From Thermoanaerobaculia bacterium (GTDB taxonomy: Bacteria; Acidobacteriota; Thermoanaerobaculia; UBA5066), in the NCBI GenBank assembly GCA_963719225.1, contig CAVRAY010000002.1, positions 448,001-512,000 of the forward strand: a stretch of DNA of 64,000 bases. The letters are read 5' to 3'. Below the pieces are notes generated by a model that made no database searches, was not told the origin of the DNA, and was given only the letters and a program-made list of their open reading frames with translations. A program made the position numbers and the translations under genes. Shown here piece after piece: positions 6,596 through 61,711 of the stretch (position 1 is the first letter of the stretch; every line of letters starts with the position of its first letter).

Positions 6596-6638
6596 CAGGT
6601 GGAGGCGTCAAGGCGTTGCTGGAGAAGGGAGTCGTTCG

Positions 6639-7919: not shown

Positions 7920-7935
7920 GGACGAAGGGTCGGGC

Positions 7936-9156: not shown

Positions 9157-9159
9157 GCG

Positions 9160-10431: not shown

Positions 10432-10453
10432 GAACTCCGTTACCATTCCCGGC

Positions 10454-10810: not shown

Positions 10811-10820
10811 GCCGCGTCCG

Positions 10821-19473: not shown

Positions 19474-19477
19474 CGAT

Positions 19478-29386: not shown

Positions 29387-29400
29387 GCTCGGCGCCCTGT

Positions 29401-29426
29401 TAACCGTTCCCGCAGCCGGAGCGTCT
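29401..29426 (+). promoter_or_regulatory. Putative autoregulatory ECF promoter (TAAC-N17-CGTCT)
   Basis: AAC/CGT boxes at ECF spacing directly upstream of the operon that encodes the ECF sigma factor. Confidence 0.6.
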
Positions 29427-38402: not shown

Positions 38403-38924
38403 TCAGGGTGCCGCCTTCACCGCCAGCCATTCGCGGCGAGCTCCAGGCGGCAATGTGTCCAAGTGCTTCGCAAAAAGCGCGACCTCCCACATCTCCCGAT
38501 CAGACAGAGTCCCGCCGTAGGCCGGCATCCCCGTGAATCGAATGCCGTGGGCGACCTTCCAGTACGTTACTTCCACGGGATCATCCTCGACGCCGTGTTT
38601 CGCGAGCTGCGGCGGGTTCGGCGTCAAGCCTTTCGCGATCGACGACATTCCACCATCGGCACCTCCATGGCACACCTGACAGTTGGCGCGGTAGAGCGCG
38701 ACGCCCGAGGTGAGACTTTCGTCCGTGGGCAGAACGGGACTCTTGAGTGCCGTGGCCTCTCGGCGCATCGTCGCCTGCAGCGATCTCTTCGCGGCCCACT
38801 TTTCCAGCCTGCTCGGCTTCGAGTCCTGTCCGGCCGGCAGGGCGCCGGTCGTCACGAAGAAGTAGCCGGCGGCAATCGCCGTGGCGACGGCAGCGACAAA
38901 GCCCAGGACAAATCCCTTTCCCAC
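38403..38924 (-). CDS. Membrane-anchored cytochrome c
   Basis: C-terminus of the long antisense ORF; AAGGAGG RBS and GTG at 38924; N-terminal TM, CQVCH and GIRFTGMPA (distal Met). Confidence 0.9.
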   Translation of the reverse strand: MGKGFVLGFVAAVATAIAAGYFFVTTGALPAGQDSKPSRLEKWAAKRSLQATMRREATALKSPVLPTDESLTSGVALYRANCQVCHGGADGGMSSIAKGLTPNPPQLAKHGVEDDPVEVTYWKVAHGIRFTGMPAYGGTLSDREMWEVALFAKHLDTLPPGARREWLAVKAAP

Positions 38925-39008
38925 GGCGACCTCCTTGCAACGAGCAGACGAAACCTGGCGTCGCCGCTTTTGACGTTGCCGCCCGGCGCATATCATCCTG
39001 CGCGGGAC

Positions 39009-42000: not shown

Positions 42001-42416
42001 GCGTGACGTCGGCCGGACTTCCGGCAGGACGCCTGGCCTTCGAGATCACCGAGACGGCGGCGGTGAGGGACATCGTCGTCGCCCGCGAGTGGATGCGCCG
42101 GCTGAAGGACCGGGGGTGCCGGTTCGCGCTCGACGATTTCGGGATCGGGTTCTCGTCTTTCTCTTACCTGCAGAGCCTGCCGGCCGACTACGTGAAGATC
42201 GACGGCTCCTTCATCCGGGGCGTGGAGACCGACCTCGCGGCCCGTGCCCTCGTGAGGGCGATCGACACGGTGGCGCACACCCTGGGAAAAGAGACGATCG
42301 CCGAGTGCGTGGAGAGCGTGGATTCCGTGAAGATTCTCCAGGAGCTCGGCGTGGAATACGGTCAGGGGTTCGCGTTGGGAAAGCCGTCTCCGGCCCACGT
42401 TCACTTCGGCACGTGA
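39009..42416 (+). CDS. GAF-PAS-PAS-GAF-PAS-GGDEF-EAL c-di-GMP signalling protein
   Basis: HPDD PAS, HDPLTDLSNR, RFGGDEF, EALLR, FEITET and DDFGIG; ATG at 39009. Confidence 0.93.
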   Translation: MKTRSEIGSVENRVHERGELVQAAAFRIAEAVTETGSLQELFSRIHAIVGGLMEAANFYIALHDPDRDVLSFPYFVDLVDKPFPPKRVGKGLTEYVLRTGRPLLASPDVFLGLVASGEVEQIGTDSVDWLGVPLRGRDRPIGVLAVQSYTGKVRYTEEDRDLLVYVSSQIAQAIERKRSEEALKESELKLRAIVAALPDLVLVLDREGRYREIHATRAENLVLPREVLLGRTIPEFLPAPVAELWLEKIDTCLLTGTMQTVEYSLDVQAGLRVFEARVVPYGPDAVMTVVRDVTEGTRAAEALGSAQADLKRLTDNMVDVISQVDLEGNFQFVSPSHELVTGWTSGELLGANALDLVHPDDHRMIREKLARGAATGKSGSAEYRYRVRDGRYIWVETVSNVLRGPDGKPQAFVLGSRDVTARKRAEAVLGVLHETGRKILRHDPIEQILQFICDEVAGRFEFAVVWIGIRETDGTITQRAVAGPAADFVRQNRFRWDGTPEGKGPSGEAIRTGRPVVISTAADERVAPWLGGVEKFRLGSALSIPLVVDESVLGVVSSYSDRPNAYGEETIRLLARFADQAALALFEARQHERIDLQTAALEAAANAVLITDREGVIEWVNPAFTDLTGWQREEVVGQTPRILKSDIQPSYYYETLWETITAGNVWRGELHNRRKDGVVYVEEQTITPVRSAEGEIRHFISIKQDVTARRQNEEKIRHLALHDPLTDLSNRHAFEETLARTVSRAQRGSPSTLLLLDLDNFKIVNDALGHPAGDRVLVEVARLIVGLVRPGDDVARFGGDEFAVLLEGVALEGARITAERLRRCVDEHRFFVGDRAFDLGISVGVVPVDGSADAPSLMALADSALYAAKEKGRNRVMVVENVTGGSSPLSEASRWASRIKEALREDRFVLHYQPIFHFKSGRAAHFEALLRLREGNDLIAPAVFLPAAERFGLMPQVDGWVVDHVVELLVKNPEAEIFVNLSGTSLGDESLLSHIEERVTSAGLPAGRLAFEITETAAVRDIVVAREWMRRLKDRGCRFALDDFGIGFSSFSYLQSLPADYVKIDGSFIRGVETDLAARALVRAIDTVAHTLGKETIAECVESVDSVKILQELGVEYGQGFALGKPSPAHVHFGT

Positions 42417-45361: not shown

Positions 45362-47764
45362 TCACTCCACCCGGATCGAGACCGGTGGCGAGGCGAGCTT
45401 CACGAACGGGAGGCGCGCGACGAACGTGTGCGCTCCGGGCGTGACCTTCCAGCGCGCGGTGTAGGGCCATGGCACGGTCGCGAAAGGGGAGCCGTCCACC
45501 CACCAGACGATCTCCCGCACCGCGGGCGAGACGACCGCCTTCAGCGCCACGGTGGCTTCGGCGGCGGGAGTCTCCGGGTCGAGCAGCACGTGCAGCCCGT
45601 TCTCCGGCGCGGTGATTCTCACTCTCGAGGTGATGCCGGCGAGCAGCGTCGTCGGGGGCTCATGGGGGGCGAGCAGCTCAACCGATGCAGAGCCACCGGG
45701 AGGATGGGGGAGGCCCGCGGACGCGGACCAGGCCGCGTACCGCGGACCGAGATCGACGAAGGTCCGCAACCTCAGGAAGCGGCGTGGCGTGGCTCGCGTG
45801 GCGAGGAGACCCGAGCGTGCATCGATCGCGAGACGCACGTGCGACGTGCACGGGTCGAGCGGCTCGTGTCCGGGGTGCAACCACTCCGTGACGATCTTCT
45901 CGCACGCCTCGGTCGCGAGGCGGCCCGTCATCGCGCAGAGGCGGACGCTCACGAACCCACGCGGGGCGGGGAAGGAAAGGTCCCCGAGGCCGTCGGTCTC
46001 GTCGGCATGGAGCGCGACCATTACCCGTTGCGCGAGCTCGGCCGCCGCGCGGTAGCCGCTCAGCTTGTTCATCGGCTTGAAGTCGGGGTGCCCGATCCAG
46101 ACGCCGACGAGATAGCGCGACGAGTAGGCGACGGTCCAGGCGTCGCGGTAGCGCGACGAGGTGCCGGTCTTCACCGCGACCGGGAACGGATACTCCGTGA
46201 CGCCCATCCGCGGGAAGCTCGGCAGGCGCGCCATCGGGTCGGCGAGGTAAAGCGTCACGGCCCGCGCGGTTTCCTCCGAAACAAGCCTCCTGGGACGAGG
46301 GCGCGGCTGCCCTTCCCAGGCGAGCGGCTCGACGAGGACGCCGTCGTTCGTGAAGACGGAGTACGCGCGGACGAGCTCCTCGAGCGTGACGGGCATCCCG
46401 CCGATGGCGAGCCCGAGCCCGTAGCGTTGGACCGGCACGCTGCCGTCGTGCAGCTCGAGGGAGCGGAGGAAGTCGTATCCCTCGGCGAGCCCGATCCGGT
46501 CGAGGAGGTCGGCGGCCGGCACGTTGCGCGAGTTCGCGAGCGCCACGCGGGGAAGGAGCGGACCGAGGAAGAGGTCGTCGGCGTTCGTGATGCCGCCGGC
46601 GCCCCGGTCGAGGTCGGGCAGGATCGTGGCCGGGGTGATCGTGCCGCGCTCCAGCGCGAGCGCGTAGAGGAACGGCTTGAGCGCGCTCCCCGGCGAGCGC
46701 GGCACGCGTGCGAAGTCGATCGCTCCCGCGTGCTCGGCGTCTGCCCACCTCGTCGACCCGACGCGCGCGACGACCTCGTTCCGTCTCCGGTCCACGACGA
46801 TCACGGCGGCGTTCCCCGCACCCTGCTTCTCCCAGGCCGCGACGGCCCAGCGCGCGGCCTGGACGACTCGCCGCTGAAGGGGCAGGTCGAGCGTCAGGCG
46901 GACCACGGTCCGTCCCGAAAGCGCGCGGCGCGTCTCGGGCGTTCGTGCCAGCGAGGCGAACCTCAGGACGGCGTGAATCGCTTCGGGCGGCCGCTCGCTG
47001 CGTGGTGGGACGTGAAGTCTCTCGATCTCGCGTGCGGCGAGAGAAAGCTCGTCGGCGGAAAGCGCGCCCCGCGCGTGAAGGAGCGCGAGGATCCGTTTTC
47101 CGCGCCGGATCGCGCGAAGCCTCCCTTCGGGATCGAACGGGTTCATTTTTCGCGGCGATTGCGGGATGGCGGTGAGGAACGCCGTCTCCGCCCAGGAGAG
47201 GTCCTCCACCGGCTTGTCGAGGTAGCGTCTCGCGGCGTACGCGATGCCGTGGATCCGGTTTCCGTACGGGACGATCTCGAGGTAGTGGCGCAGGACGCCG
47301 GCGCGTCCGTACCACGCCGTCAGGAGGAGCGCGGTCACCGCCTCCTGCGCTTTTCGCAGCAGGTGTCGCCGCCCCGGGTGCTGCAGGCGAGCCACCTGCA
47401 TCGCGAGCGTCGAGCCGCCCGAGACGCGCTTGAGGTGCCGGATGTTCTGGACGACGGCACGGGCGACGGCGAACGGGTCGACGCCCGCGTGCGACGCGAA
47501 CCGGCGATCCTCCACGGCGATCGTCGCGGCGACGACCCGCTCCGGAACTTCCGGCAGCGTCCAATAGCCGAACTCCGGCCTCTTGTCCGCGAACGCGACC
47601 TCGCCGAGGAAGCGATCGTTCCGGTCGCGCAGGAGGAGCGTCGGCTCGGGAGAGACGAAACGCGCGCGCCACACGGCCGGCCCGAGAACCGCGAGGCAGA
47701 GCGCCGCCGCCGCGAGGAGGGCGAGGCGGCGAGGCGGGGACCACCCGGAAAGGCGCATCGTCAT
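45362..47764 (-). CDS. pbpC: Penicillin-binding protein 1C
   Basis: EDRRF and SGGSTLAMQVARL transglycosylase motifs; SALK, SRN and KTGT transpeptidase motifs; C-terminal Ig-like domain; downstream of A2M. Confidence 0.93.
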   Translation of the reverse strand: MTMRLSGWSPPRRLALLAAAALCLAVLGPAVWRARFVSPEPTLLLRDRNDRFLGEVAFADKRPEFGYWTLPEVPERVVAATIAVEDRRFASHAGVDPFAVARAVVQNIRHLKRVSGGSTLAMQVARLQHPGRRHLLRKAQEAVTALLLTAWYGRAGVLRHYLEIVPYGNRIHGIAYAARRYLDKPVEDLSWAETAFLTAIPQSPRKMNPFDPEGRLRAIRRGKRILALLHARGALSADELSLAAREIERLHVPPRSERPPEAIHAVLRFASLARTPETRRALSGRTVVRLTLDLPLQRRVVQAARWAVAAWEKQGAGNAAVIVVDRRRNEVVARVGSTRWADAEHAGAIDFARVPRSPGSALKPFLYALALERGTITPATILPDLDRGAGGITNADDLFLGPLLPRVALANSRNVPAADLLDRIGLAEGYDFLRSLELHDGSVPVQRYGLGLAIGGMPVTLEELVRAYSVFTNDGVLVEPLAWEGQPRPRPRRLVSEETARAVTLYLADPMARLPSFPRMGVTEYPFPVAVKTGTSSRYRDAWTVAYSSRYLVGVWIGHPDFKPMNKLSGYRAAAELAQRVMVALHADETDGLGDLSFPAPRGFVSVRLCAMTGRLATEACEKIVTEWLHPGHEPLDPCTSHVRLAIDARSGLLATRATPRRFLRLRTFVDLGPRYAAWSASAGLPHPPGGSASVELLAPHEPPTTLLAGITSRVRITAPENGLHVLLDPETPAAEATVALKAVVSPAVREIVWWVDGSPFATVPWPYTARWKVTPGAHTFVARLPFVKLASPPVSIRVE

Positions 47765-47765
47765 G

Positions 47766-50700
47766 TCACTTCGTGCGTGAGACCTCGACCAACGCCCCGT
47801 TCGAGTTGCCGCGGACGGCCGCGTCGTACATCAGCTCGCTCTTGGCCGGAGGCTGGATGAAAGAGCCCGGCGTCACGGCGCGGGTCCGGAAGCGGAAGTC
47901 GTACGTGCCCGCCGGGAGCGTGTCGTAGAAATAGGCCACGGCGTCGTCGAGGAACCTGACGTACGTCGGGGCGAGCGTGGGAGGCTTGCTCGGCGCGGCC
48001 TCACGCGGCGCGGTGGCGAGGGCCGGGTTCAGGGGCTCGAGTCCGGCCGCCAGCGGCGCCGTGATCGCCACGTGATGCCGTACCTGGGGATTCACGATCT
48101 GGACGTGCTCCTCCACGATGGCGCCGATCGCGAGCGGCACCGTGATTCCCGGCTCACCCAGGGCGATCCTCTCCGGGGGCGCGCCGTCCACGATCCGGAA
48201 GAGCTCGCGCGTCACGACGAAGCCGTTCGACGCCGACGCGGCGCGGCTCCCGTCCTCGGCGAGGACGTAGCGCGTCTCGGCGGCGAGGACCAGCGGCCGC
48301 GAGGCCGAGGTCACGGCGAGTGGTGTTTCGGCGGGCGCCCTCGAAGCGAGCCTGGCAACCGCGCTCCCGGCCGCGGGGGCGAGCGGCTTGGCCTCGGCAC
48401 CCTCCTTCACGATGCACGTGAAGGCCTCGGGCTTTCCGGAGCCCAGGACGTCCGAGAGCGCGAGGAGAGCCGCGGCGTTTGCGTTCGTCGATCCCCAGCC
48501 GTCGCCGCGCCCCATCGTCACGAGCGCGTTGACGAGCGCGCCGAGACGCGTGTCCCCGGGGACGACGCGGTGGAGAGCACGCAGGACCTCCGCGAGCGCC
48601 CGCGGCTCGCTGCAGAGGAGGACGAGATCGCCGAGCCGGTCGCCGTCCTGGAGGCCGCCGTAGACCGCTTTTCCTTCGCGGCTCCGCCAGATGATGCCGT
48701 CCCAGAGCGTGTTGCCGATGGCGAGAGCCGTCTCGCTCCTGGCCTCCTTCGAGCGTGAGAAAGCGAGGAGCACCTCTGCTTTTCCTTCGAGCCTCAGGAA
48801 CTGGGGTCTCCGCGCCAGCTCGGCGGCGTAGGCCGCGTCGAAGCGGCCGGCGTGCGCGAGAGCGGAGAGCGCCCACGTCCTCTCGAGGAACGACTCGCCT
48901 CCGACGAAGCGGGGGTAGTCGGATCTCAGCGCCTTCTCGAGCGACGTCAGGAGCCGCTCGAGGAGCTTGTCGTCGATCGCGAAGCCCGCCTCCTTCGTCT
49001 CCACCAGAAAATCGACGGACCACGCGGTGAGGGAGACGTATCCGGGCGATCCCGGCCAGAAGGCGACGAAGCCGTTCGGGTCGATCGCGTCTGCGATCGC
49101 CTTCTGCGCGGTCGAGAAGGCGCGGGTCGCCCGCTCCTCGTCGCCCGTCCTTCCGAGGAGGGCGCGCAGCTTCCGCGCCGCGGCGAGAGCGCGCGCGGCG
49201 CTCATCGTCTGCTCCGTGCAGCCGTAGGGATACTCGTCGAAGAAATCGAGGCCATTCGCCATCTTGATGACGGCAGGTTCGGACGAGACGAGGAGCGAGC
49301 GCCGGAGCGTCCCCGCCCGGACCCGGTCCTTGATCTCGGGGACCGTGAACGTCGCCCCCGGGGCGAGGTCGGCGAGGATCCGCTTCAGGACCGGATCGCG
49401 ATCCGCGTGGATCGGCAGCTTCACCTCGAAGGCGTCGCTCGCCTTGTCGCTCGCCCTCTCGACACCGGCGCGGAACGTGACGTGACCGGACGCGTTCGCG
49501 GGCACTTTCACCCCGAACTCGATGCGCTCGGGCTTGTTCGGCTCCAGGGCGAGCGCGCGTGCGGCGGAACCTTCGAGCGAGGCGCCCAGGACCTTGACCT
49601 GGGCGGCGGCCGGGCCGCCTTTCCCTTCCACGATGCGGGCCAGGGCGGCCCCCGTGAAGACGTCTCCGGCACGAACGAAGCGGGGAAGCGCGGGCTGGAT
49701 GATCACGGGCAGCCGGACCGCGATCGTCCCGGTCCCGAAGCCAAAGCGGTCCGGGCCGCTCATCACCTTGGCGCGCACCTTGAAGTTCGTCAGGTTGTCG
49801 GGGAGCTGCACCTGGACGGTTTTCGTTCCGTCGGGTCCGACGAGGATCGCCGGGTCGTAGAAAGGAACGGTCTTGAAATTCCGGCGGACTGTGGCGCGGT
49901 CGATGATCCCGCCCGCGGCCCCGCCGTCCCCGCCGGGCGCCTCCGCGAACGGCAGGAGCCCGAAGACTGAGTTGCGCGTGTCGCGCACGAGGAGGTGCGA
50001 GCGGACCGGTGTGATGAAGTCCGGCAGCGGGTCCAGGCGCTGCTCCTTGCCGAGCGCGAGAACGGCCTGATCCACGAGCCAGAGAGTGACCTCGCCGGCA
50101 AGGGGTTTGCCCTGCGGATCCTTGAGAGTGATCGTCACGTCCACCTTCCGGCCCGGCATCGAAACGTCGGGGTGCGCCAGGGTCACCGCGACGCGGTTGG
50201 CCACGGGCTCCACCTCGAGCCAGGCGGTCGCCGCCATCGTCGAGGGCTTCCCGAGATCCGTGGCGTTTCCGGAGCTCGGGCCGGCTCCGGCGATCCGGCC
50301 GCGCATCAGGACGAAATGCACCGGCACGCGCGGGGCGAACGTCGGGAGGACGTCGAGACGGTACGTTCCGGCGCCCTTCTCAACGTCGAGCCACTCGTAC
50401 CGGTTGCCCTCCGGCGCTTCCACGATCGCAAGCGCGCGTGCCTTCTGGAACGGGCTCTGGAGGACGATCGCGGCCTTCGCTCCGGGCTGGTACCTGGCCT
50501 TGTCCGTCGCGACAGCGAAGACCTTCGTGACGGGCCGGGCCCACGTCACGGGCTCGTCGCCGCCCGCGTAGAGGTCGATGGCGACGATTTGCGCGCGCCC
50601 GAGCCGGTCACGCGCCTCGAGCTCCACGACGTAAACCCCCGACGACGAGATCGGGAGCGGGACGGTCAGCGGCGTGAGCTGGCTCTTCACCGTCTGCTCG

Positions 50701-53468
50701 CTCACTTTTTCGTCGACGACGTCGGTCAGGTACCGGGCGATGCCGTCGGAGAAATCGCTGGCGCGGAGAACCGAGTGCCACTGCCGCTTAAGCAGCCGGA
50801 CCGTGATCGTCTTTCCTTCGATCTCCTTTCCGTCGGGGCCGACCGCGATGACGCGCGGTGAGAGCGTCCGCGCGTGCTCCACGAAGCGCGGCACGTCGAG
50901 GCCGAGGACGAACGGCGGCAGCGCCGCGATGCGCCGCGTGGAGGTGACCGTCTGATCGTCGGCTCCGGTGACGGTGGCCTCCACGACGTACGTGCGCGGC
51001 TGGGCCGTCGGCTCGATGGCCGGGTTGAGCTTGAGCGTCGCGCCTCCGGCGTCGTTCGTGGTGTCGTCCTTCGTCAGGCGGGGAGACGACCGGAAGCGCT
51101 CGGCGCGCGAGAAGCGCCCGTCGGACGAGAAGCGGAATCCCTCGCGCTGCGGGGGACTCCAGTCGTGCGGAAACTGCGTCACGCGCCATTGAACGGGACG
51201 AGAGCTCACCTTCCCGCCGGCGTAGTAGGTCGCGGTGAGGGAGACCTGGAACTCCTTGTCGAGCGCGGCCTGGTCGGGGCCGTGGAGGTCGACCTCGAAC
51301 TCCGGGATCCGGTAAGCCTCCATCCGGAAGCTGACGTGCCCGAACGGGCGCTTCTTCTTGTCCTCGTAATGCGCGTTGTAGATGCCGGTCGGGAGGTTCT
51401 TCTCCTTGAAGAGATGGTAGAAGCTCCCGCTCTCGGAGACCGAAACCGGCAGACGCCAGGCGAGCTCGCCCGGTCCCTCGACGACGATCGTCCCGTCCTC
51501 GGCGGGAAGCGGGTGCAGCAACCCGCGCACCCGTTCGCGGAGATATCCCTTGAGATGCACCTCGTCCTCCGGGCGGTAGACGGGGCGCTCCGTGAAGAGG
51601 TGGCAAAGTGTCTCGGCCCGGGCGCCGCGCGCTTCGAGCGGCTGAAACGCCCAGTCGAGCCAGTTGTCGCGGCTCTTCGCCCACTGGTTGTCGGCATAGC
51701 TCTCGGGCGGGTGCGCCGTGTCGAGAACGAGGAGGTCCTTTCCCTTCGTCACGACGATCCGCCTCGTCGTGCGGCTTTCGTGGACGTTCGGGCGGCCGGG
51801 CGCGTCCCAGCGGAACGTCCCGTCGGGACCGGTCGTCCCTTCCACGAAGGTTTCCCAGACCGACTTGCCGGGCATCCGATGAGTTCCTTCCAGCCGCACG
51901 GCCGCGCCCGGAACCGGAAGGCCCGTCGCGAGCGACGTCACCGTGAAGCGGACCGCCTGCGGCTCCTCGAGGGCCGTGAGCGCGAGGTCCGTCGCCTGGA
52001 TGCGCATCCAGCTCCTCAGGCTTCCCCCTTCGAGCGCGCGAAGGCCGACGAGGTAAGTACCGCTCTCGCCCGGCCCGGAGATCTTCGCGAGGTGCGGTGC
52101 GAGGTCGAGGCCGAAAGCCGCCGCATTGCCGTCGCGCTTGAGCGGGAGCTGGACGATGGCGGAGACCGGCGGCGAGCCGAGGAGCTTCACGTGTCGCGCG
52201 ATGCCCTCGGGCGCGATGTTTTGCTCGGGTGCGTTCCACGCGCCGGGCTCCTCGCCCGGTCCCGGCGGGCGTGTCGACTCGTCCGTCGTGATCGCGCGGT
52301 CGGGGAAAGGCCACAAGCTCCTGTCGAGGGGGTCGATCTTCTGGATCCTCAGGTCGAGCTTTTCGGCGCCCCGCCCGTCCACGGGCACCATTTGCGCGCC
52401 GAGCCGCTCCACGATTCCCTGCCCGGCGCCCCACTTCACGTAGGACGCGCGCCGCGGGAAGACGACGAAGGCCTCGCTCCTGCCGGCCGCATCCAGCGTG
52501 CGGCCGCGCTGATCCGTGAGCTTCGCCGGAAGGATCGAGACGGCGTAGAGAGTGTCGCGCCGGAAGGCGCCCCGGATCTCGAGCGTCCGCGCGCTGGTCT
52601 GGAGCTTCAGGTCTTCGACGGACGGCGTGAACCGGACGAGGTTGCGCGCCTCGACCGGGGAGATCGGGCGCGGCGCGCTCGAGAACTCGACGAGGATCGC
52701 CGGGCTTTCGGTGCCGCACTTGATCGCCTGATCCTTCTCGTAGAGCGTCCCCGACGGGGTGACGGGCAGCTGGCGCTCGCGACAGCCGAAGGAGAGGACG
52801 CGGAACGGCTCACCGGTCGCGAACGAAAGCTCCTTCGCGGCGCCGGCGGCGGCTTCGTCCGCGGAGAGCCGGAGCGTGAGCACCGCGCGGGTGCCGGCGG
52901 GAACCGGGTGCGCGAGGGAGAGGGAATACGAAGGGGCGTCGGCGCGACTCGTCCTCTCGAGCGCCTTGATCCTGATCTCCTCGGGCGGAAGGCGGCGTCC
53001 TAGAGAGACGCCGGGGAGCGGACGCAGCTCGAGCGTCACCATCTTCGCGAGCATCGCGGGAGGGAGCGGCTCGCCGAACGTGAGCGTGATCTCGTCGAAG
53101 GGCTCCAGCCCCTCGGCGCCGTCGTTCGGCACGGTGGCCACCGGCGCTTCGAGGAGCGTGGCGAGCGTTCCGGCCTTTCCTCCCAGCGGCGTCACGCGAA
53201 AGCGCGTCAGCGCCGGCCAGGGCTCGGCGGGGCGGAACTGGAGAGTCCGGGCGTCCAGCCACCCGTACGCGCCGGGTTGCGCGGGATCGATCGACACGAA
53301 GCGCTCGGGCCGGTCTTCCGGTCCCCCCTTCGCGGGGCCGAGGTCCGATGCGAAGAACACGGTCACCGGGTCCCAGCGGCGCAGGAGCCGGTCGGGGACG
53401 ACGCGCGGTCCCGTCTCGGCGGCGCCGATCGGGAGGGCGAGCAGGAAGGTCAGCAGAAGGGGTTTCAT
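47766..53468 (-). CDS. Bacterial alpha-2-macroglobulin with intact thioester motif
   Basis: ATG at 53468 with signal peptide; FTERPVYRP, LPDNLTNF, PALPRF, YPYGCTEQ (CTEQ at 49209-49220), WGSTNAN and TPGSFIQPPAKSELMY. Confidence 0.93.
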   Translation of the reverse strand: MKPLLLTFLLALPIGAAETGPRVVPDRLLRRWDPVTVFFASDLGPAKGGPEDRPERFVSIDPAQPGAYGWLDARTLQFRPAEPWPALTRFRVTPLGGKAGTLATLLEAPVATVPNDGAEGLEPFDEITLTFGEPLPPAMLAKMVTLELRPLPGVSLGRRLPPEEIRIKALERTSRADAPSYSLSLAHPVPAGTRAVLTLRLSADEAAAGAAKELSFATGEPFRVLSFGCRERQLPVTPSGTLYEKDQAIKCGTESPAILVEFSSAPRPISPVEARNLVRFTPSVEDLKLQTSARTLEIRGAFRRDTLYAVSILPAKLTDQRGRTLDAAGRSEAFVVFPRRASYVKWGAGQGIVERLGAQMVPVDGRGAEKLDLRIQKIDPLDRSLWPFPDRAITTDESTRPPGPGEEPGAWNAPEQNIAPEGIARHVKLLGSPPVSAIVQLPLKRDGNAAAFGLDLAPHLAKISGPGESGTYLVGLRALEGGSLRSWMRIQATDLALTALEEPQAVRFTVTSLATGLPVPGAAVRLEGTHRMPGKSVWETFVEGTTGPDGTFRWDAPGRPNVHESRTTRRIVVTKGKDLLVLDTAHPPESYADNQWAKSRDNWLDWAFQPLEARGARAETLCHLFTERPVYRPEDEVHLKGYLRERVRGLLHPLPAEDGTIVVEGPGELAWRLPVSVSESGSFYHLFKEKNLPTGIYNAHYEDKKKRPFGHVSFRMEAYRIPEFEVDLHGPDQAALDKEFQVSLTATYYAGGKVSSRPVQWRVTQFPHDWSPPQREGFRFSSDGRFSRAERFRSSPRLTKDDTTNDAGGATLKLNPAIEPTAQPRTYVVEATVTGADDQTVTSTRRIAALPPFVLGLDVPRFVEHARTLSPRVIAVGPDGKEIEGKTITVRLLKRQWHSVLRASDFSDGIARYLTDVVDEKVSEQTVKSQLTPLTVPLPISSSGVYVVELEARDRLGRAQIVAIDLYAGGDEPVTWARPVTKVFAVATDKARYQPGAKAAIVLQSPFQKARALAIVEAPEGNRYEWLDVEKGAGTYRLDVLPTFAPRVPVHFVLMRGRIAGAGPSSGNATDLGKPSTMAATAWLEVEPVANRVAVTLAHPDVSMPGRKVDVTITLKDPQGKPLAGEVTLWLVDQAVLALGKEQRLDPLPDFITPVRSHLLVRDTRNSVFGLLPFAEAPGGDGGAAGGIIDRATVRRNFKTVPFYDPAILVGPDGTKTVQVQLPDNLTNFKVRAKVMSGPDRFGFGTGTIAVRLPVIIQPALPRFVRAGDVFTGAALARIVEGKGGPAAAQVKVLGASLEGSAARALALEPNKPERIEFGVKVPANASGHVTFRAGVERASDKASDAFEVKLPIHADRDPVLKRILADLAPGATFTVPEIKDRVRAGTLRRSLLVSSEPAVIKMANGLDFFDEYPYGCTEQTMSAARALAAARKLRALLGRTGDEERATRAFSTAQKAIADAIDPNGFVAFWPGSPGYVSLTAWSVDFLVETKEAGFAIDDKLLERLLTSLEKALRSDYPRFVGGESFLERTWALSALAHAGRFDAAYAAELARRPQFLRLEGKAEVLLAFSRSKEARSETALAIGNTLWDGIIWRSREGKAVYGGLQDGDRLGDLVLLCSEPRALAEVLRALHRVVPGDTRLGALVNALVTMGRGDGWGSTNANAAALLALSDVLGSGKPEAFTCIVKEGAEAKPLAPAAGSAVARLASRAPAETPLAVTSASRPLVLAAETRYVLAEDGSRAASASNGFVVTRELFRIVDGAPPERIALGEPGITVPLAIGAIVEEHVQIVNPQVRHHVAITAPLAAGLEPLNPALATAPREAAPSKPPTLAPTYVRFLDDAVAYFYDTLPAGTYDFRFRTRAVTPGSFIQPPAKSELMYDAAVRGNSNGALVEVSRTK

Positions 53469-56400
53469 CGCGGGCTTCCTTTTTCTTCGTCGGGCGTCTC
53501 GGCGTCGGGCTCGCCCTCGCCTTTCGACGCGGCAGCCTCCTCGTCGCTCTCCTCGACCCGTGCGGCGCTTGCACTCCTGGCGGGCGGCTCCGCGAGGACG
53601 TACGTTCGGATCACGTCGGCAGGCGGACCCGTGCCGGGCGGGTCCACGCCTGCCAGCGCGGGACGGATCCTCACGGGCGCGGCGTCGGCCGGGGCGCGGA
53701 CGGAAACGAGATAGTCGCCGACGGCGAGCTCCGGCATCTGGACCAGCCCCTCGCCCAGCCGGGCGCCGCCGGCCGATAGAAGCGTCGCGGTGACGAGGTC
53801 CGAGCTCGCGCGAACTCCGAGGCCGACGGCGCCTGAGCGCGCGACGTGGAATCCGTAGAGCCGCGCCTGACCCGCGCCGAGGAGGATCTCGGGTCCAAGT
53901 CCTTCGGCGATCTTCGTGACGGGCGTTGCCGTCAGCGTGGCGCGGCCTGAGAGCGATCCGGAGCCGAGCGCCCTGAGGAGGATTCGCGCCGAGCCGGAAG
54001 AAGCGTAGAGGTCGAGCCTCACGCCGCCTTGGTGGATGGCCACTTCGGGCGGGGCGCCGTCGCGCGTGACGAGCGAAAGCGCGGGGCCCGCGGAACGGAA
54101 CGAGAGAAGTGACGGCGCGCTCGAAGCGACCGTGAAAGTCGCGACCTCGCCCGAGAGCGTCACGGCGACCGGCGGCGCGAGCGCGACGGGCGGCGTTCCC
54201 GCTCCGTCGCCGAAGAGGTCGGCGGCCTCGCTTCCCGGACGGTCGACCCAGGCGAGAACGAGACCGGGAGCGTGCGGCAGCAGGAGCGTGCCGCCTTCCA
54301 CGGGGACCACGAGGTCGGCGCCGCGGAGGTTCCGCGCGTCGGGAGAGAGGAGCGTGACCGGGCCCGAAGCGCCCCGCACGTGAAGGGTGCGCGTCTCCCC
54401 CGAAGGGGGAGCGGCAACGGGGATCCGAAGCGTCCCGCCGTCGGGGAGAGACGCGGCGAAAGGAGCGCGCGGGACGAGCGCGGCCGGCGCCCCCGACGTC
54501 GCGAAGACGTCGAGCGCGAACCGGGTCTCGGAGAGAGACGCCGAAAGGAGGGCGATCTTCTCGCCGTCCGTCTCGAGCGTCTCGTCGGCCGGAGCGTCCG
54601 TCGTGCCGAGGAGCGCGAGTCCGTCGCGACCCTTCGAGACGAGAGCAAAGAGCCCCGCACCGAGCGCGACACGGAGCCTCTTCACGCCGGAGGGAAGGAC
54701 GAAGGCGCGCGCCGCGAGGCCGGCGACGGCGCCGTCGAACGAGAGGCGCGCGGGAGTCTCGGTGCGTGGGTTCGCGAAGGCGATTCGCGAAAGGACCACG
54801 TCCGAGAGGGGCTCGCCCGGGCCGGCGGCCAGGGAAACGGCCGGCGGCGCCTCGAGCGCGGCGGCGAACCCCGTCCGCTCGCCTGCGGTCGCGGCTCCGC
54901 GAGTGAGAAGGAGGCCGGGCTGACCCGTTGCCGCCCGGGCTCGCACGAGGACCGGCCCCTTGGCGACGGCGAGGTCGCAGAGCGCCCCAGATGCGTCGAG
55001 CGTCACCTCCTTCTCGTCGAGCTTCACGCGCGCACCGCGCACCGGGCCCTCGGAGACGATGACGATTCGCTTTCCTCCGCCCGCGACGAGCCCCTCGACC
55101 TGGAGGGCCGGCGCGTCGGGAGCGGTGCTGACGCGCAGAGCAGAACCGGAAGTCTCGAGGCGGAAAACGCCGGGGCGCTCGAGCGCGACTGCGACGGCGC
55201 CGTTCGGGAGCGCGCCGCCTTTCTCGAGCTGGCGCTCTTTCCACTCGACGAGCGGCACGCTGGAGGCCGCGACCTTCACGGACCCGCCGCGCCCGTCCGC
55301 CGAGAAGAGACCGATGCGAAGCATGCGCGCCGCGCCGGTCGGAAGGAACACGCGGGCGGCGCGCCCGGTCTCCTGCGCCAGGAGCGCTCCGTCCTCCGCC
55401 ATGACGGAGAGTCCCACGCTCTCGGAGGCGGTGGCCGAGATCGAGAGGAGCGATCCCGCCGCGACGGATACCGGGATCTCGAGGACGCCTCGCCCCGGCT
55501 CGAGCTCGCGCGCGATCGGAAGCGGCTCCAGGGGGAGCGCGCTCCGCACGAGCTCCCGGAGCGCGATCGCCGTTCGGGCCGTCGGCGCTCCGGCCGGGTC
55601 GACGCGGAGCGTGTAACGCCCCGGCGCGAGCGGGCGCGCGATCGCGAAGTTCCAGTCGTCGGCCCGGTCGTCGTTCTCGGCCACGACGTTACCGGCCGAG
55701 TCGCGGAGGCGTGCGCGAACGTCGTCCACCCCGCTCGAGGCGAGCTCGTAGAGACCGGGACTTCCGATCGAAATCGGGATCTCCGCGGGGGCGGTCACGG
55801 CGCGGGAGAGACCGGCGACGAGCGGCTCGGGTGTCACCGAGACCGCGTACTCCACGCGGCTGTCGCGGCGCGCGGCGGTCGCTTCCAGGACGTACGAGCC
55901 AGGCGCGAGTGATCCGTGGAAGCCCGCGCCAGACGAAACTTCGACGGTGGCAGCGCTGTCCCTCAGGAGGCGACCCTGCATGCCGGCCGTCAGGACGACT
56001 TTCACAACGGCGGGCGCGGGCAGCGTGAAGCCGAAGCGGTCGGGGATGCGATCGGCTCCCTCGGCCGGCTCCATCCAAAGCGCAGCGGCGCTCACACCGA
56101 GCGGGAGCGCGTGCGGACCATGCCCGCGAAAGCGAAGCGGGCCGGCCTGCCGGTCGAGCGAGACGACCGCGCGCGCGGAGACCGCGAAGGGAAGGACCAC
56201 GAGGCGATACGTCCCCTTCGCGAGCGTCCGGCGGAGGTCGCCGTCCACGCCCGGCTTGAGGAGCGGCCAGCCGTCCTTGTCCTCGAGGCGAACCGGAAAT
56301 TTTCTTTTCAGCCCGAGCGCGCGAATCCGGTAGGTGCCGGCCTTGCGCACGTCGAGCCGGAGCTCCGCCGCTTCTCCGGCGCCGAGCGAAAGGCGCGCCG

Positions 56401-58645
56401 GGACGCCGTCGGTGACGTCGCCGCCGTTCACGACGGCCGTCTTCGAGAGGACGACGCCGACGTGGCCGGCGGAGAGCCCGCGAGGCTGCACGGTCACCTG
56501 GTAGTCGCCCTCCCTGAGGTAGTCGGCGACGAGCGCGTTTCGCCCGACGCCGTTCTCCGCTTCTTCGCGAAACTTCGTGACGGTGCGCGTGCGCAGGAGC
56601 GCGTTCGTCGCGAGGAGGCCGGTCGTCTCGATCCTGTAGAGGCCCGGCTCCGGCACCTTCACGTCGAAGGTCGCGGCTTCGTCCTTCGCGAGGTCGAGCG
56701 TCCGCGGCGTCTCGGGCAGGAGGTCGGGGAACTTCGGGAGTGCGGCGATCGCCTGATCGGGAAGCGGCGGCAGCGGAGCGTCCTTCGCGAGCGACCGCGT
56801 CTGCGCCGCGATCGAGAGGACCCGTGGCGCGTCTCCAGAGAGCGTCACGGCCGCTTCGTGGGCGCCGGGCGCAACCCGCGGGCGCGGAACGGCCGGCGCG
56901 CCGTTGAGCGAGATCGCGAGCGGCGTGCCGTCCTCGGTCTGCGCCACGAGAAGCGATTCCTCGGCCGTGACGAACGGAACGCTCACTGTCTCGCCGGGGC
57001 GCGCGGCGACGGCGAGCGGGTCCGTCAGGTCGAGCGGCAGCTTCCGGAAGACGAGACCCGAGACGACGCCCGGGCGTTTCCCGACGACGAGCGTGTACCA
57101 CGCGGTCTGCGAGAGAGAAACCTTCGGAAAGAGGACGCCGCCGCGAGGGGCGTGCGGCGACGGGGCGGCCTCGCCCGCTGCGCGGATCGAGAGAGTGACG
57201 ATCCCCTTCTTGACGGGGTGGACCGTGAGCTCCCAGAGCCCCGCGTCGAGATCGACGGTTCCCTTCCCGCGAAGGGCCACCGGCTTGATCTCGTTCGACC
57301 GCCGCGCGAGAGCCGGGAGGATCTGCATTCTCGCGTCGACTCCGGCCGCCTCCAGCTCGTACTTCCCGGCCGAGGCGGTCCGAAAGAAGAGCGACAGCGG
57401 GCCGTCGAGGTTTCCGCGCCCGGCCCACGGACGTCGCGGGGCGACTTCGACTTCCGCGCTCCTGAGCGGCACGCGTTGGCCGCTCTCCACGAGCACGCCG
57501 GTCTCGTCGACGGCGTCGCGCGAGTCGGCGGACGGGATGCTTCCGATCCACCAGTCGCCGCTCCCGCGCACGGCGTATTCGTCGCGCATCTCGAAGTGCG
57601 TCAGAACGTACGGCTGTCCGGCGTCGCCGCGGACGGTCACGAGCGTGAATCCGTCGGTCCGGCCGGCGACGCTCAGAGATGCAGCGGGCGGATTCGTCTT
57701 CTTGCCGATGGACGCGCTCTCCGCCGCTTCGCGGAAAGGCTGTGCGTCATCCCATGGCGCGCCGTTGAACGAGATCGGCCGGGCCTCGGGGACCTCGAGC
57801 CCCACGAACGTCGCCGCGCCCGCGATGAGGAAGCGGTCGATACCCGAGGCGCCCAGCTCGTGTCGCCCGCGCCCCGCGACGCCGTATCGCGGAATCCCCC
57901 ACACGAGAGAAAGCGGATGCTCGGCGCTTTCCTCCGCCCAGGGCTCGCCCGGAGAGCCGTAGGCGGAAAGCAGGTACAGGCCGGGCTCGAGGGCGGCCCA
58001 GAGCCGCATCACGCGAAGCGGGCGCCCGGCGCTCGGAATCGTGACCTCGCTCTCGGGCTCGGCGGCGACGAGCCAGCTTCCGCCGTTCCAGAGGCGGAGG
58101 TCGGCGAGGTTCCGGCCGGCCGCCTCGAAGGCGACCTTCCGTCGCTTGTCGATCGAGATCCACCAGGATCGCTTTTCGAAATCGGCCAGCGCCGTCTCGA
58201 CGGGCTTCGTCTCCACGAGTCGGGGCGGCGTGTCGCCGTTTTTCTCGACGAACTCGTGAACCGCGAGCTTCGCCCGCCCCTTGGCCTTCGGGTCGCCGTT
58301 GAGGACGAGGCGAACCTGTCCGCGGTCGAGGAAGACGTCCGCGCGGCCGTCCTCTTCCCCCGGCATCCCGAAACGCGGGCCGGGACCCGCCATCCGGTCG
58401 ACGACCGTCAACGCGACGCCTTCGTCGCTCTTCGCGGTCAGAGCCCAACGGCCGAACCGGGGAATGGTGACGACCGCCACCTGGCGGCCCGCGGCCGCGA
58501 TCTGCGCGGGGACGACGCGAGCCTCCTCGGCTCGGAGCGCGAGCGGAAGGAGAAGCGGGAGGAGCCACTTCCTGCGTCGCCCTGTGCGGGATTCCAATGG
58601 AAACGAGAATAGCAGCGGAACTTCGTGTGCCTTCTTGTGGCTCAT
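53465..58645 (-). CDS. Giant (~1726 aa) secreted multi-beta-sandwich protein of unknown function
   Basis: C-terminal part of ORF 53465..61339; signal-peptide-like N-terminus; repeated PPC-like modules (PGLYLL, PGLYRI, AGTYRI, PGSYVL, PGRYTL, VGDYLV; VVAENDDRADDWNF); its stop overlaps the A2M start. Exact start uncertain. Confidence 0.8.
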   Translation of the reverse strand: MSHKKAHEVPLLFSFPLESRTGRRRKWLLPLLLPLALRAEEARVVPAQIAAAGRQVAVVTIPRFGRWALTAKSDEGVALTVVDRMAGPGPRFGMPGEEDGRADVFLDRGQVRLVLNGDPKAKGRAKLAVHEFVEKNGDTPPRLVETKPVETALADFEKRSWWISIDKRRKVAFEAAGRNLADLRLWNGGSWLVAAEPESEVTIPSAGRPLRVMRLWAALEPGLYLLSAYGSPGEPWAEESAEHPLSLVWGIPRYGVAGRGRHELGASGIDRFLIAGAATFVGLEVPEARPISFNGAPWDDAQPFREAAESASIGKKTNPPAASLSVAGRTDGFTLVTVRGDAGQPYVLTHFEMRDEYAVRGSGDWWIGSIPSADSRDAVDETGVLVESGQRVPLRSAEVEVAPRRPWAGRGNLDGPLSLFFRTASAGKYELEAAGVDARMQILPALARRSNEIKPVALRGKGTVDLDAGLWELTVHPVKKGIVTLSIRAAGEAAPSPHAPRGGVLFPKVSLSQTAWYTLVVGKRPGVVSGLVFRKLPLDLTDPLAVAARPGETVSVPFVTAEESLLVAQTEDGTPLAISLNGAPAVPRPRVAPGAHEAAVTLSGDAPRVLSIAAQTRSLAKDAPLPPLPDQAIAALPKFPDLLPETPRTLDLAKDEAATFDVKVPEPGLYRIETTGLLATNALLRTRTVTKFREEAENGVGRNALVADYLREGDYQVTVQPRGLSAGHVGVVLSKTAVVNGGDVTDGVPARLSLGAGEAAELRLDVRKAGTYRIRALGLKRKFPVRLEDKDGWPLLKPGVDGDLRRTLAKGTYRLVVLPFAVSARAVVSLDRQAGPLRFRGHGPHALPLGVSAAALWMEPAEGADRIPDRFGFTLPAPAVVKVVLTAGMQGRLLRDSAATVEVSSGAGFHGSLAPGSYVLEATAARRDSRVEYAVSVTPEPLVAGLSRAVTAPAEIPISIGSPGLYELASSGVDDVRARLRDSAGNVVAENDDRADDWNFAIARPLAPGRYTLRVDPAGAPTARTAIALRELVRSALPLEPLPIARELEPGRGVLEIPVSVAAGSLLSISATASESVGLSVMAEDGALLAQETGRAARVFLPTGAARMLRIGLFSADGRGGSVKVAASSVPLVEWKERQLEKGGALPNGAVAVALERPGVFRLETSGSALRVSTAPDAPALQVEGLVAGGGKRIVIVSEGPVRGARVKLDEKEVTLDASGALCDLAVAKGPVLVRARAATGQPGLLLTRGAATAGERTGFAAALEAPPAVSLAAGPGEPLSDVVLSRIAFANPRTETPARLSFDGAVAGLAARAFVLPSGVKRLRVALGAGLFALVSKGRDGLALLGTTDAPADETLETDGEKIALLSASLSETRFALDVFATSGAPAALVPRAPFAASLPDGGTLRIPVAAPPSGETRTLHVRGASGPVTLLSPDARNLRGADLVVPVEGGTLLLPHAPGLVLAWVDRPGSEAADLFGDGAGTPPVALAPPVAVTLSGEVATFTVASSAPSLLSFRSAGPALSLVTRDGAPPEVAIHQGGVRLDLYASSGSARILLRALGSGSLSGRATLTATPVTKIAEGLGPEILLGAGQARLYGFHVARSGAVGLGVRASSDLVTATLLSAGGARLGEGLVQMPELAVGDYLVSVRAPADAAPVRIRPALAGVDPPGTGPPADVIRTYVLAEPPARSASAARVEESDEEAAASKGEGEPDAETPDEEKGSPR

Positions 58646-58794
58646 CGCCGCGTATTCATCAAGGCGGGTGCCGGAGAGCCTCGGGCCTGCGGCCGCGCGG
58701 CGACGTGTCCCGCCTGCTTCCTTCCGCGGTATGCATCTCCATTCCGGAGATGAAAGGGCGCCGATTAGACTCCCCGCTCCGAACGGAGGTGTCC

Positions 58795-61711
58795 GTGAAC
58801 CGGTCTCGACGCCGTGCCCTCTCGCCCCTTCCTCTCGCCGCGCTTCTCGCTCTCGCCGGCGCCGCCGCCGCGCAGCCGTTTTCCGAGACTCTGTTCTCGG
58901 AGATGCGCTGGCGGATGATCGGCCCGTTTCGCGCAGGGCGCACAGTCGCCGCGAGCGGCATCCCCGGCAACACGAACGTCTTCTACGCCGCCGCGAACAA
59001 CGGCGGGGTCTGGAAGACGACGGACGCCGGACGCGTCTGGACTCCGATCTTCGACGACCAGCCCACGGGCTCGATCGGCGCCCTCGCCGTCGCGCCGTCG
59101 CGCCCCGACACGCTCTACGTCGGGAGCGGGGAAGGCCTGCAGCGCCCCGACCTCTCCGTCGGCGACGGCATCTACAAGTCGACGGACGCGGGGAAGACCT
59201 GGGTCGCACCTCGGCCTGCGCGACGCCCAGCAGATCGCGGGCCTCGCCGTCCACCCGCGCGACCCGGACCGCGTTTACGCGGCGGTCCTCGGCCACCCGT
59301 ACGGCGCGAACGCCGAGCGCGGCGTCTTCCGGTCGACCGACGGCGGAAAGACGTGGACGAAGGTCCTCTACAAGGACGAGAACACGGGCGCCTCGGCCGT
59401 GACGCTCGACCCGTCGAATCCCGACGTCGTCTATGCCGTGCTCTGGGCCGCGCGGCTCGGCCCGTGGGAGAACGGCGAGTGGCAGGGGCCCGAAAGCGGC
59501 CTCTTCAAGAGCACGGACGGCGGGACCACGTGGAAGAAGCTCGTGAACGGTTTGCCCACGTTCGCCGACGGCCTCGGGCGCATCGGCGTTTGCGTCTCCC
59601 CCGTGGATCCGAAACGCCTCTACGCCACTGTCGACGCGACGCCCGAGAAGGCGGGCATCTACGTGTCCGACGATGCCGGGGAGAGCTTCACGCGCACGAA
59701 CGGCGAGTCGCGCGTCTGGGGCCGCGGCAGCGACTTCGCCGAGCTGCGCGCGCACCCGAAGAACCGCGACGAAGTCTGGGCCGCGAACATCGCGACGTAC
59801 CGGTCGACCGACGGCGGAAAGACGTTCGCCCCCGTGAAGGGCGCGCCGGGCGGAGACGACTACCACACGATCTTCATCCACCCCGAGAATCCCGACGTCA
59901 TCCTCCTCGCGGCCGATCAGGGCGCGACGATCTCCGTGAACGCGGGCGCGACGTGGAGCAGCTGGTACAACCAGCCGACGGCGCAGCTCTACCACGTCTC
60001 CACGGACGACCGCTTTCCGTACTGGGTGTACGGAGGGCAGCAGGAAAGCGGCTCCGTCGCGATCGCGAGCCGGGGCGACGACGGGGCGATCACCCATCGC
60101 GACTGGCACCCCGTCGGCGCGGAGGAGTACGGCTACGTCGCGCCGGATCCGCTCGACCCCGACGTCGTCTACGGCGGAAAGCTCACGCGCTTCCGCCATT
60201 CCACGGGCCAGGTGCAGGACGTCTCGCCCGCGCCGCTCCGCGGCACGTACCGCTTCCTGCGCACGGCGCCCGTCCTGTTCTCGCCGGCGGACCCGCACAT
60301 CCTCTTCTATGCGGGCAACGTCCTCTTCAGGACCAGGAACGGCGGGAAGACCTGGGACGTCGTCAGCCCCGACCTCTCCCGCGAGGCGCCGGACGTGCCC
60401 GAGTCGATCGGCGTCTACCGCAAGCCCGAGATGGCGACGCAGAAGCGCCGCGGCGTCATCTACACCGTCGCGCCCGCGAAGAAAGACGTGAACGTGATCT
60501 GGGCGGGCACGGACGACGGCCTCATCCACCGCACCGCGGACGGGGGAAAGACGTGGGTCAACGTCACGCCGCCCGGCCTCACGGCCTGGAGCAAGGTGTC
60601 GCTGATCGACGCCTCGCCGTTCGACGACCTCACGGCCTACGCCGCCATCAACCGCATCCGCCTCGACGACCAGCAGCCCCACGTCCTGCGCACGCACGAC
60701 GGCGGAAAGACGTGGAAAGAGATCGTGAAGGGCCTTCCCGACGATCCCGTCAACGCCGTGCGCGAGGATCCGGTCCGGAAAGGGCTCCTCTACGCGGGCA
60801 CGGAGCGCATGGTCCACGTCTCCTTCGACGACGGCGAGAGCTGGCAGCCGCTGCGCCTCAACATGCCGGCCACGTCCATCCGCGACCTCGTCGTCCACGG
60901 CGACGACCTCGTCGTCGGCACGCACGGGCGGAGCTTCTGGATCCTCGACGACGTCACGCCGCTCCGCCAGCTCGACGCGAAAACGGCCTCGAGCGCGCCG
61001 TTTCTCTACGCGCCCCAGACCGCGATCCGCGTGCGCCGGAGCCGCTGGACCGACACGCCGCTTCCGCCGGAAGAGCCCGCGGGCCGGAACCCGCCGGACG
61101 GCGCGATCCTCGACTACGTCCTCGCCGTGAAGCCGGCGGCGCCCGTGACTCTCGAGATCCTGGACGACAAGGGCGCTCTCGTCCGGCGCTTTTCGAGCGA
61201 CGATGCGCCCGAGCCGCTCGTCGACCCTCTCGTCGTCGCGCCGTACTGGGTGCGGCCGCCGCGCATCCTGCCGGCGGCGCCCGGCATGCACCGCTTCGTC
61301 TGGGACCTGCGCTTTCCGCCCCCGCGCACGAACCAGCACGAGTACCCGATCTCCGCGATCCCGGGCGACACGCCGAAGGAGCCGCTCGGGCCGTTCGTTC
61401 TGCCCGGGGCGTATACCGTGAAGCTGACCGTGGACGGGACGTCCTTCACGCGAAGCCTGACCGTGAAGCTGGATCCGCGGGTCCGGATGTCGCCGGCCGA
61501 CCTCGCCGCTCAGCTCGCCCTCCTCAACCGGTTGAGCGCGGCGCTCGAGCGCGTCGCGTCGGAGCCCGCCCCTCGGGAAGCGGAGGCGAAGAAGAAGCGC
61601 GGCTCGCTGGAAGACAAGCTCGTGCGTCTCTGGGGAATCATCGAGGGTGCGGACGAGGCGCCGACGGCGCAGGCCGCGGCCGCGGTCGACGAGCTGGCCG
61701 CCGTTCCATGA
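58795..61711 (+). pseudogene. BNR/Asp-box (VPS10/GH74-like) beta-propeller protein with a +1 frameshift at 59201-59203
   Basis: Repeated S/T-x-D-x-G-x-T-W boxes on both sides; removing one G from TGGGTCG restores GKTWSHLGLRDAQQI and joins the two frames. Confidence 0.85.

Follow-up and report, generated by a model that had tools for sequence, protein, structure and literature searches.

The DNA analyzed here, a stretch of 64,000 nucleotides from a Thermoanaerobaculia bacterium (referred to as the window), carries a three-gene cassette in which a giant protein of an unnamed family is encoded in front of a thioester alpha-2-macroglobulin (A2M) and a PbpC-type penicillin-binding protein. We propose that the giant protein probably serves one clade of type I A2Ms as an obligate co-subunit without enzymatic activity, exported together with its A2M and forming with it an approximately 1:1 complex in the periplasm, beside PbpC. 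By the precedent of the Mag system, this reading fits best because the pairing of the two genes is exclusive in both directions, the genes are tightly spaced, and the giant protein has a packed, non-catalytic structure; the binding of the giant protein to the A2M, as a complex, is predicted. Judged from its sequence, the A2M-PbpC core of the cassette is ordinary, and the part that is likely new is the undescribed obligate third gene.

The three genes are consecutive on the minus strand (Table 1), and their third-position GC of 0.86-0.89 is as expected for real genes in this DNA. The stop codon of the giant gene overlaps the start codon of the A2M gene, and a 1-bp gap separates the A2M stop from the pbpC start. 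The gene trio, this overlap and gap, the CTEQ motif and the lack of a lipobox in the A2M had all been described in an earlier note on this DNA, and each was reproduced from the sequence. The ATG at position 58645 was taken as the start of the giant gene, a choice that is uncertain in view of the shorter leaders of close homologues; the signal-peptide-like N terminus predicts that the protein is secreted. PbpC appears from sequence to be the only membrane-anchored product of the cassette. Neither a sigma-70-like promoter nor a convincing terminator was found at either end of it.

Table 1. Features of the A2M cassette (positions in the window; residues numbered within each protein)
Feature	Positions	Strand	Basis
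ATGA overlap of giant stop and A2M start	53465..53468	-	same overlap possible in 22/46 scored loci
Giant protein, 1726 aa, ~17 predicted beta-sandwich domains, unnamed conserved family	53465..58645	-	sequence and models
Giant leader, signal-peptide-like: basic n-region, short hydrophobic core, no lipobox; start codon uncertain	58529..58645	-	sequence; putative cleavage
Giant D1-D10 (residues 43-1032), more conserved part	55550..58519	-	models, profile and structure comparison
Giant D10 PPC-like acidic motif (residues 975-1000, contains ENDD); possible calcium site	55646..55723	-	conservation
Giant arm D11-D16 (residues 1040-1576), less conserved	53918..55528	-	model, conservation
Giant D17 and C-terminal helix (residues 1585-1686), conserved; helix of low confidence in C-half model	53588..53893	-	model, conservation
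Giant acidic tail, not constant across family	53468..53563	-	sequence, homologue comparison
Long thioester A2M, 1900 aa: N-terminal Ig-like domains, MG2, bMG6, bait-region, A2M, MG10; no lipobox	47766..53468	-	domain search
A2M Trp/Pro-rich segment (residues 378-408), highly conserved in partnered clade; candidate partner-binding arm, speculative	52245..52337	-	sequence comparison
A2M bait-like Gly/acidic loop (residues 1171-1201)	49866..49958	-	sequence
A2M thioester motif CTEQ (residues 1417-1420)	49209..49220	-	sequence
PbpC-type class A penicillin-binding protein, 800 aa: N-terminal membrane helix, transglycosylase, transpeptidase, BiPBP_C	45362..47764	-	domain search

Five Pfam families scored above cut-off in the A2M (PF01835, PF17962, PF07703, PF00207 and PF17973), and a sequence match to the YfhM structure 4ziu extended across the thioester (E 3e-08). 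The CxEQ motif was kept in all of the 120 best A2M homologues and in 52/56 locus-linked copies. On the grounds of CxEQ, the MG-domain scaffold with bait-region domain and MG10, and the adjacent pbpC, the A2M is assigned to type I and predicted to trap its targets covalently. PbpC contains transglycosylase, transpeptidase and BiPBP_C domains with their active-site motifs, and its best model by far was the PBP1C equivalog TIGR02073, at 453.5 bits against a cut-off of 494.2.

The proposal that the giant protein is dedicated to one A2M subtype was checked for strict co-occurrence and held both ways. Two scans gave 77 loci, 50 of which were informative, with a complete giant gene and at least 500 bases downstream, and 27 of which were too short to score. 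An A2M of the partnered clade lay directly downstream of the giant gene in 49 of the 50, counts that are not independent, given the shared descent of the loci and an overlap between some sets (L006 and L140 come from a single contig); giant homologues thus do not mostly occur without an A2M. In the exception, L038, a giant gene lacking D11-D12 is followed by a decarboxylase gene rather than by an A2M. A transposase lies between the giant gene and the A2M gene in L002 and L014, and a small gene pair does so in L131; these three loci with insertions show that the pair can do without strict translational coupling. Within the host phylum, a long match to the giant protein turned up in 13 of 301 genomes, and exactly these 13 also had an A2M scoring at least 1411 bits, with the next one, below the partnered clade, reaching 323 bits; in one of the 13 the two genes fell on two broken contigs. 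No full-length giant gene was found in 122 further host-phylum genomes with other A2Ms. Searches of 401 genomes from a second phylum with the giant protein and with the A2M returned the same 4 genomes, and when 72,556 plasmid records were searched, both genes marked an identical set of 7 from Rhizobium, in unchanged order where annotated. Conversely, the genome and plasmid sets contained no partnered-clade A2M that lacked the giant gene. PbpC then follows in 37/38 scorable loci and in 9/11 genome regions, a linkage that is slightly looser than the giant-A2M pairing.

The exclusivity of the pairing was also apparent in a quick tree of 26 partnered loci, the window and the 17 nearest unpartnered A2Ms, where the partnered A2Ms formed one side of a long branch (SH-aLRT 100). 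Pairwise distances of the giant protein and the A2M correlated closely (r = 0.97, 69 pairs), as expected of any co-inherited operon. Covariation between the two proteins (69 pairs, Neff 54) was uninformative, with a failed within-protein control. One outlier pair, giant 1459/A2M 399 (z 22), was discarded as an artifact, its z falling to 2.6 on removal of L039 or of L040, two nearly identical rows. No giant-A2M fusion occurred among 2689 scored candidates of 3022-5000 aa, which is weak evidence.

We then characterized the giant protein itself. A word search found 134 relatives, all of them called "hypothetical protein" at source, and a profile of the first 900 residues retrieved 767 representatives (50% identity, fragments included) at E 1e-30 or better. 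Pfam, NCBIfam, PADLOC and PDB sequences gave no match above cut-off, and no phage match was found. The only family hint was PPC (PF04151) at residues 958-1016 (E 0.0047; 18.2 bits against a gathering score of 25.9), the gathering score being reached by 1/24 giant homologues (P0097). A search of the Atlas listed unnamed clusters of 1743/1766 aa first and PPC clusters next. In none of these searches did the giant protein match an already characterized family. Motifs read earlier from the sequence were found again: (P/A)GxYxL strands recur in 7 copies (14 copies of the looser xGx(Y/W)xL), and the PPC-like ENDD occupies residues 990-993. The acidic tail is present in the protein of the window but is not family-wide, as D/E makes up 25% or more of the last 40 residues in just 35% of 252 giant homologues.

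The positions with 95% conservation hold Arg, Asp, Glu or Asn, apart from one Ser and one Thr, and none holds His or Cys; D975, D992 and D993 are each at least 95% conserved. We infer that the conserved residues are structural or calcium-binding, not catalytic. Lack of a recognizable catalytic motif, as the earlier note had it, was thus confirmed by the absence of conserved His or Cys and of a family match, and the nearly all-beta models described below could not accommodate a peptidase domain.

AlphaFold2 models of residues 40-935 (pLDDT 92.9, pTM 0.84) and 836-1690 (pLDDT 91.5, pTM 0.76) were almost entirely beta, and suggest that the domains are packed rather than strung like beads. The tandem beta-sandwich modules anticipated from the sequence took the form of ~17 PPC/collagen-binding-type domains in fixed order, counted from the strand pattern with approximate boundaries, one of them split by an inserted domain. 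All domains are kept in order in 227/252 homologues, most of the others being cut at an end, and several domains match one another as profiles at 90-96%. Mean column conservation was 0.41-0.46 in D11-D16 versus 0.46-0.64 in D1-D10 and D17. One homologue naturally lacks D11-D15 and retains its A2M, indicating that any interface would sit in D1-D10 or D16-D17. Covariation inside the giant protein (190 rows) gave weak signals that suggest contacts of D17 with D2/D5 (ranks 72-123), to be taken as a lead only. Compared over the whole chain, the half models matched no solved structure overall (TM-score 0.14 or less); Foldseek matches to A2M/complement structures, with TM 0.05-0.09, were treated as noise from many beta-sandwiches.

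Taken singly, D7 (Z 12.7, rmsd 3.3, 99 aligned) and D9 (Z 13.2, rmsd 1.9, 97 aligned) resembled PPC/collagen-binding domains, in a comparison that covers few domains and barely touches the others. PliG, a periplasmic inhibitor of g-type lysozyme, was also matched by single domains, at Z 10.8 (rmsd 2.6, 93 aligned) and Z 12.8 (rmsd 2.2, 99 aligned). Such matches would be expected if the giant protein worked in parallel with the A2M as a multivalent inhibitor of, or decoy for, wall-degrading enzymes such as lysozymes and lytic effectors, in a three-arm defense that blocks muramidases, traps proteases and repairs the wall. The same idea draws on the N-terminal LprI domains that head 9/252 homologues and occur in 11 loci, including three fetched Rhizobium loci; these heads, absent from the giant protein of the window, point to cell-wall protection. 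However, collagen-binding, GOLD and SID1 domains share the fold at similar Z, and an independent inhibitor need not be confined to a single A2M clade. Sequence kinship to PliG was looked for and rejected (hhalign probability 8.5% at most against the single E. coli PliG sequence). We therefore consider a parallel inhibitor unlikely.

Membrane or lipid anchoring was addressed in both proteins. The giant protein has no transmembrane segment, a C-terminal hydrophobic segment was found in 0/252 homologues, and a lipobox pattern was present in 1/252. The signal peptide of the A2M in the window contains no Cys, and the lipobox pattern occurred in 1/121 A2Ms of the partnered clade. The 17 nearest unpartnered long A2Ms, 6 of which adjoin a PbpC gene and none of which has a giant gene, likewise had a canonical lipobox in 0/17 cases, or a lipobox-like Cys in 3/17 when judged by eye. 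By these sequence patterns, the missing lipobox is not specific to the partnered clade. Long A2Ms lacking both lipobox and giant partner thus exist, so that a soluble A2M does not in general need the giant protein, and since the giant protein has no anchor of its own, it is not a simple replacement for a lipid. The earlier suggestion that it anchors the A2M is therefore not supported.

The same lack of any lipid or membrane anchor would suit secretion of both proteins beyond the periplasm into a surface or matrix structure, where the thioester would fix the A2M to the surface, to the giant protein or to other cells, and where the task would be adhesion or coat building, not protease defense. 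PPC/collagen-binding folds are typical of extracellular binding modules, and archaeal A2M homologues sit among Ig-domain surface proteins, according to excerpts of PMC8416519. We nevertheless consider this improbable: the surroundings of the cassette show no conserved gene for a secretion system, an autotransporter or sorting, the PbpC that nearly always follows is a periplasmic enzyme, and the bait loop is retained.

A further way to read the obligate pairing is that the giant protein serves for recognition and activation, setting off the A2M thioester on a target with the bait uncut, as in complement, and the less conserved arm D11-D16 and the CUB/PPC-like folds could be seen in that light. 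The pattern of variation argues against it, as neither domain shuffling nor a hypervariable cassette was seen and D11-D15 are dispensable in one homologue. In addition, the cassette has no protease or convertase-like gene, and the giant gene outlasts the thioester: the thioester Cys was lost in 4/56 partnered A2Ms, in at least two separate events, with the giant gene retained each time. The complement-like recognition put forward in the earlier note thus found no positive evidence, and we regard a trigger of this kind as quite doubtful.

The taxa named at source include Acidobacteriota, Alpha-, Beta- and Gammaproteobacteria, Deltaproteobacteria, Myxococcales, Nitrospirota and Elusimicrobia, and cultivated Rhizobium strains are among the hosts, with CIAT894 and R. 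acidisoli FH23 carrying a cassette whose A2M has lost the thioester Cys. The closest named relative of the cassette belongs to a Thermoanaerobaculia genome (78-87% identity), while three genomes of the host genus lack both the giant and the A2M gene. Flanking genes differ everywhere. This patchy presence, together with the changing flanks and the wide range of taxa, suggests that the cassette is gained or lost as a unit. That the giant gene is a mere passenger of a mobile cassette, functionally unlinked to the A2M, would agree with the patchiness and with the Rhizobium plasmids but is highly improbable and already largely excluded, given that the two genes stay paired at identities as low as 30% and in several phyla, with all flanks changing, and that the genome and plasmid sets yielded no A2M of the partnered clade without the giant gene.

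How the favored co-subunit would work can be outlined from what is established for type I A2Ms, in which a protease cleaves the bait, the thioester is exposed and the protease is linked, with wall repair as the proposed task of PbpC. Coupled translation would yield equal amounts of the giant protein and the A2M, and Sec would export both across the inner membrane. Domains D1-D10 and D17 would form a conserved core that holds and stabilizes the A2M, otherwise soluble, in the way MagB acts on MagD, and that probably also offers incoming hydrolases a rigid wall or a surface to dock on, while the variable arm D11-D16 and the optional LprI head would face the wall or attackers. Upon cleavage of its bait by a protease, the A2M would expose its thioester and link to that protease, and PbpC would repair the wall, as proposed for the known systems. 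A membrane tether, if there is one, would come from PbpC or another protein and not from the giant protein. For A2M-PbpC itself, a role in defense has the status of a hypothesis in published work.

Bacterial A2M gene neighborhoods were reportedly first surveyed by Budd et al. in 2004. Our literature search, which covered mostly open-access papers, found no description of the giant gene or of the three-gene cassette, in agreement with the earlier note, whose author knew of none. Neither is mentioned in the excerpted text of two 2026 A2M reviews (PMC13069473, PMC12939704), the excerpts of a Gallionellaceae genome paper mention A2M and PBP1C only (PMC10734482), and those of the archaeal VARTIG paper do not mention the giant protein (PMC8416519). 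Bacterial A2Ms are described as being of two types, either with a thioester and PbpC or thioester-less with small Mag partners. The cassette would add a third arrangement, in which a large unnamed family accompanies a single A2M clade, across several phyla and mostly in environmental bacteria. The obligate partner, the thioester-less and domain-deleted variants, the LprI fusions and the cultivated Rhizobium hosts make the targets of A2Ms and their link to PBP1C testable. A more ambitious picture, which we think unlikely as a whole, is a two-chain complement-like machine of ~370 kDa, in which the variable arm and optional LprI head of the giant protein would capture incoming wall- and protein-degrading effectors, be they from predators, phages, competitors or hosts, and either hand these on to the A2M thioester or trigger it allosterically, with PbpC tethering the complex and repairing the lesion. 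If true, a recognition subunit dedicated to a thioester protein would be a first among prokaryotes.

Among known systems, several share single traits with the giant protein. The fold of its single domains is that of the PPC/clostridial collagen-binding domain (PF04151; ColG s3 and Bacillus collagenase PPC; Z 12.1-13.2), but it strings together ~17 diverged copies in fixed order and has no peptidase domain, unlike PPC-containing secreted peptidases. With the cell-wall protection proteins PliG and LprI it shares, respectively, a domain fold and, in a minority of homologues, an N-terminal fusion. Archaeal VARTIG proteins and archaeal A2M neighborhoods are alike in having large exported multi-beta-sandwich proteins near or related to thioester proteins, with a proposed immune role (excerpts of PMC8416519). 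VARTIG proteins are, however, hypervariable and of Ig fold in that text, whereas the giant family has a fixed architecture, a PPC fold and a link to PbpC; a VARTIG-type hypervariable module was considered and rejected, as shuffled terminal domains were not seen.

Closest to the A2M of the window are the type I A2M-PBP1C systems (E. coli yfhM/ECAM-pbpC, Salmonella Sa-A2M), which share with it the CxEQ thioester, the bait region, the MG-domain set and the adjacent pbpC. It differs from them in its length of 1900 aa, its extra N-terminal Ig-like domains and its lack of a lipobox, ECAM being a lipoprotein; the lipoprotein anchor of ECAM is not shared by all thioester A2Ms. Type II A2M systems include the yfa operon of E. 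coli. Type I A2Ms trap proteases through bait cleavage and thioester linkage, and the pairing with PBP1C has been proposed to serve periplasmic defense and repair (PMC5764988, excerpted). To the two-gene system, as the excerpts of PMC5764988 and PMC3735191 describe it, the window adds a partner gene in front, whose products have 1,700-1,900 residues in the family.

In Pseudomonas aeruginosa, the type II Mag system, a six-gene operon (magABCDEF), resembles the cassette in that a non-lipidated A2M is co-expressed with accessory proteins, which stabilize and position MagD. In the excerpts of PMC5764988, MagD forms 1:1 complexes with its operon partners and is degraded without MagB, which is required for both its stability and its membrane location (PMC5764988 and PMC3735191, in excerpt). 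According to the former, MagD has neither CXEQ nor pbpC, and the Mag partners are of 26-60 kDa, MagB having a predicted membrane helix. The cassette of the window, in contrast, consists of three genes, which encode an A2M with a thioester, a PbpC and a single partner of ~180 kDa without a membrane segment.

At one cassette locus, L138 (contig G193:C4, about 6190-13372), the alpha-2-macroglobulin (A2M) lacks its final ~20 residues and its reading frame continues into PbpC, reflecting either a natural fusion or a frameshift; a real fusion would support a physical link between A2M and PbpC. In the partnered A2Ms of L049 and L128-L130 (Rhizobium plasmids), the thioester cysteine was found to be replaced by Gly, Ser or Pro, and these replacements occupy two distinct tree positions; the genes remain flanked by those of the giant protein and PbpC.

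The giant itself varies as well. At L145/L147 (contig G507:C188), it comprises 1337 codons and lacks domains D11-D15, with the A2M gene still next downstream, and this natural minimal form could be of use for structural work. The giants of L134-L136, L138 and L139 form one sub-clade with 16 to 20 cysteines each, versus 0 to 9 in the other giants, and are probably stabilised by disulfides. At three loci, other genes lie between giant and A2M; the small ORF pair of L131 looks, as judged by eye, like a toxin-antitoxin-type insertion.

Features of the window and of other cassette loci (L002, L014 and L131)
Feature	Location	Strand	Remark
TonB-dependent receptor, glucoamylase-like (PF10091) protein, sugar-binding protein, F5/8-domain protein	window 16657-29403	+	glycan uptake cluster
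1333-codon ORF	window 38403-42404	-	cytochrome c domain at C-terminal end, the only Pfam match
Beta-eliminating lyase (tryptophanase/tyrosine phenol-lyase-like)	window 43950 to about 45320	-	directly 3' of pbpC, same strand
BNR/Vps10-repeat secreted protein	window 58794-61711	+	divergent, upstream of cassette
IS200-like transposase	L002:11072-11647		between giant and A2M
IS200-like transposase	L014:12492-13082		between giant and A2M
Small ORF pair	L131 about 9930-10600		between giant and A2M

Regarding the flanks of the cassette in the window, the lyase gene is not conserved next to the cassette in other loci, and the reading frame of the BNR/Vps10-repeat gene is broken by a frameshift near 59200, representing either an assembly error or a pseudogene.

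The host genome carries a second, distant A2M-like gene (G000:C1:1460745-1463051; E 2e-10). A sister group of the partnered A2Ms (L111-L127) consists of long thioester A2Ms of about 1900 aa with N-terminal Ig-like domains, encoded without a giant and mostly devoid of a lipobox, which are frequent in the host phylum.
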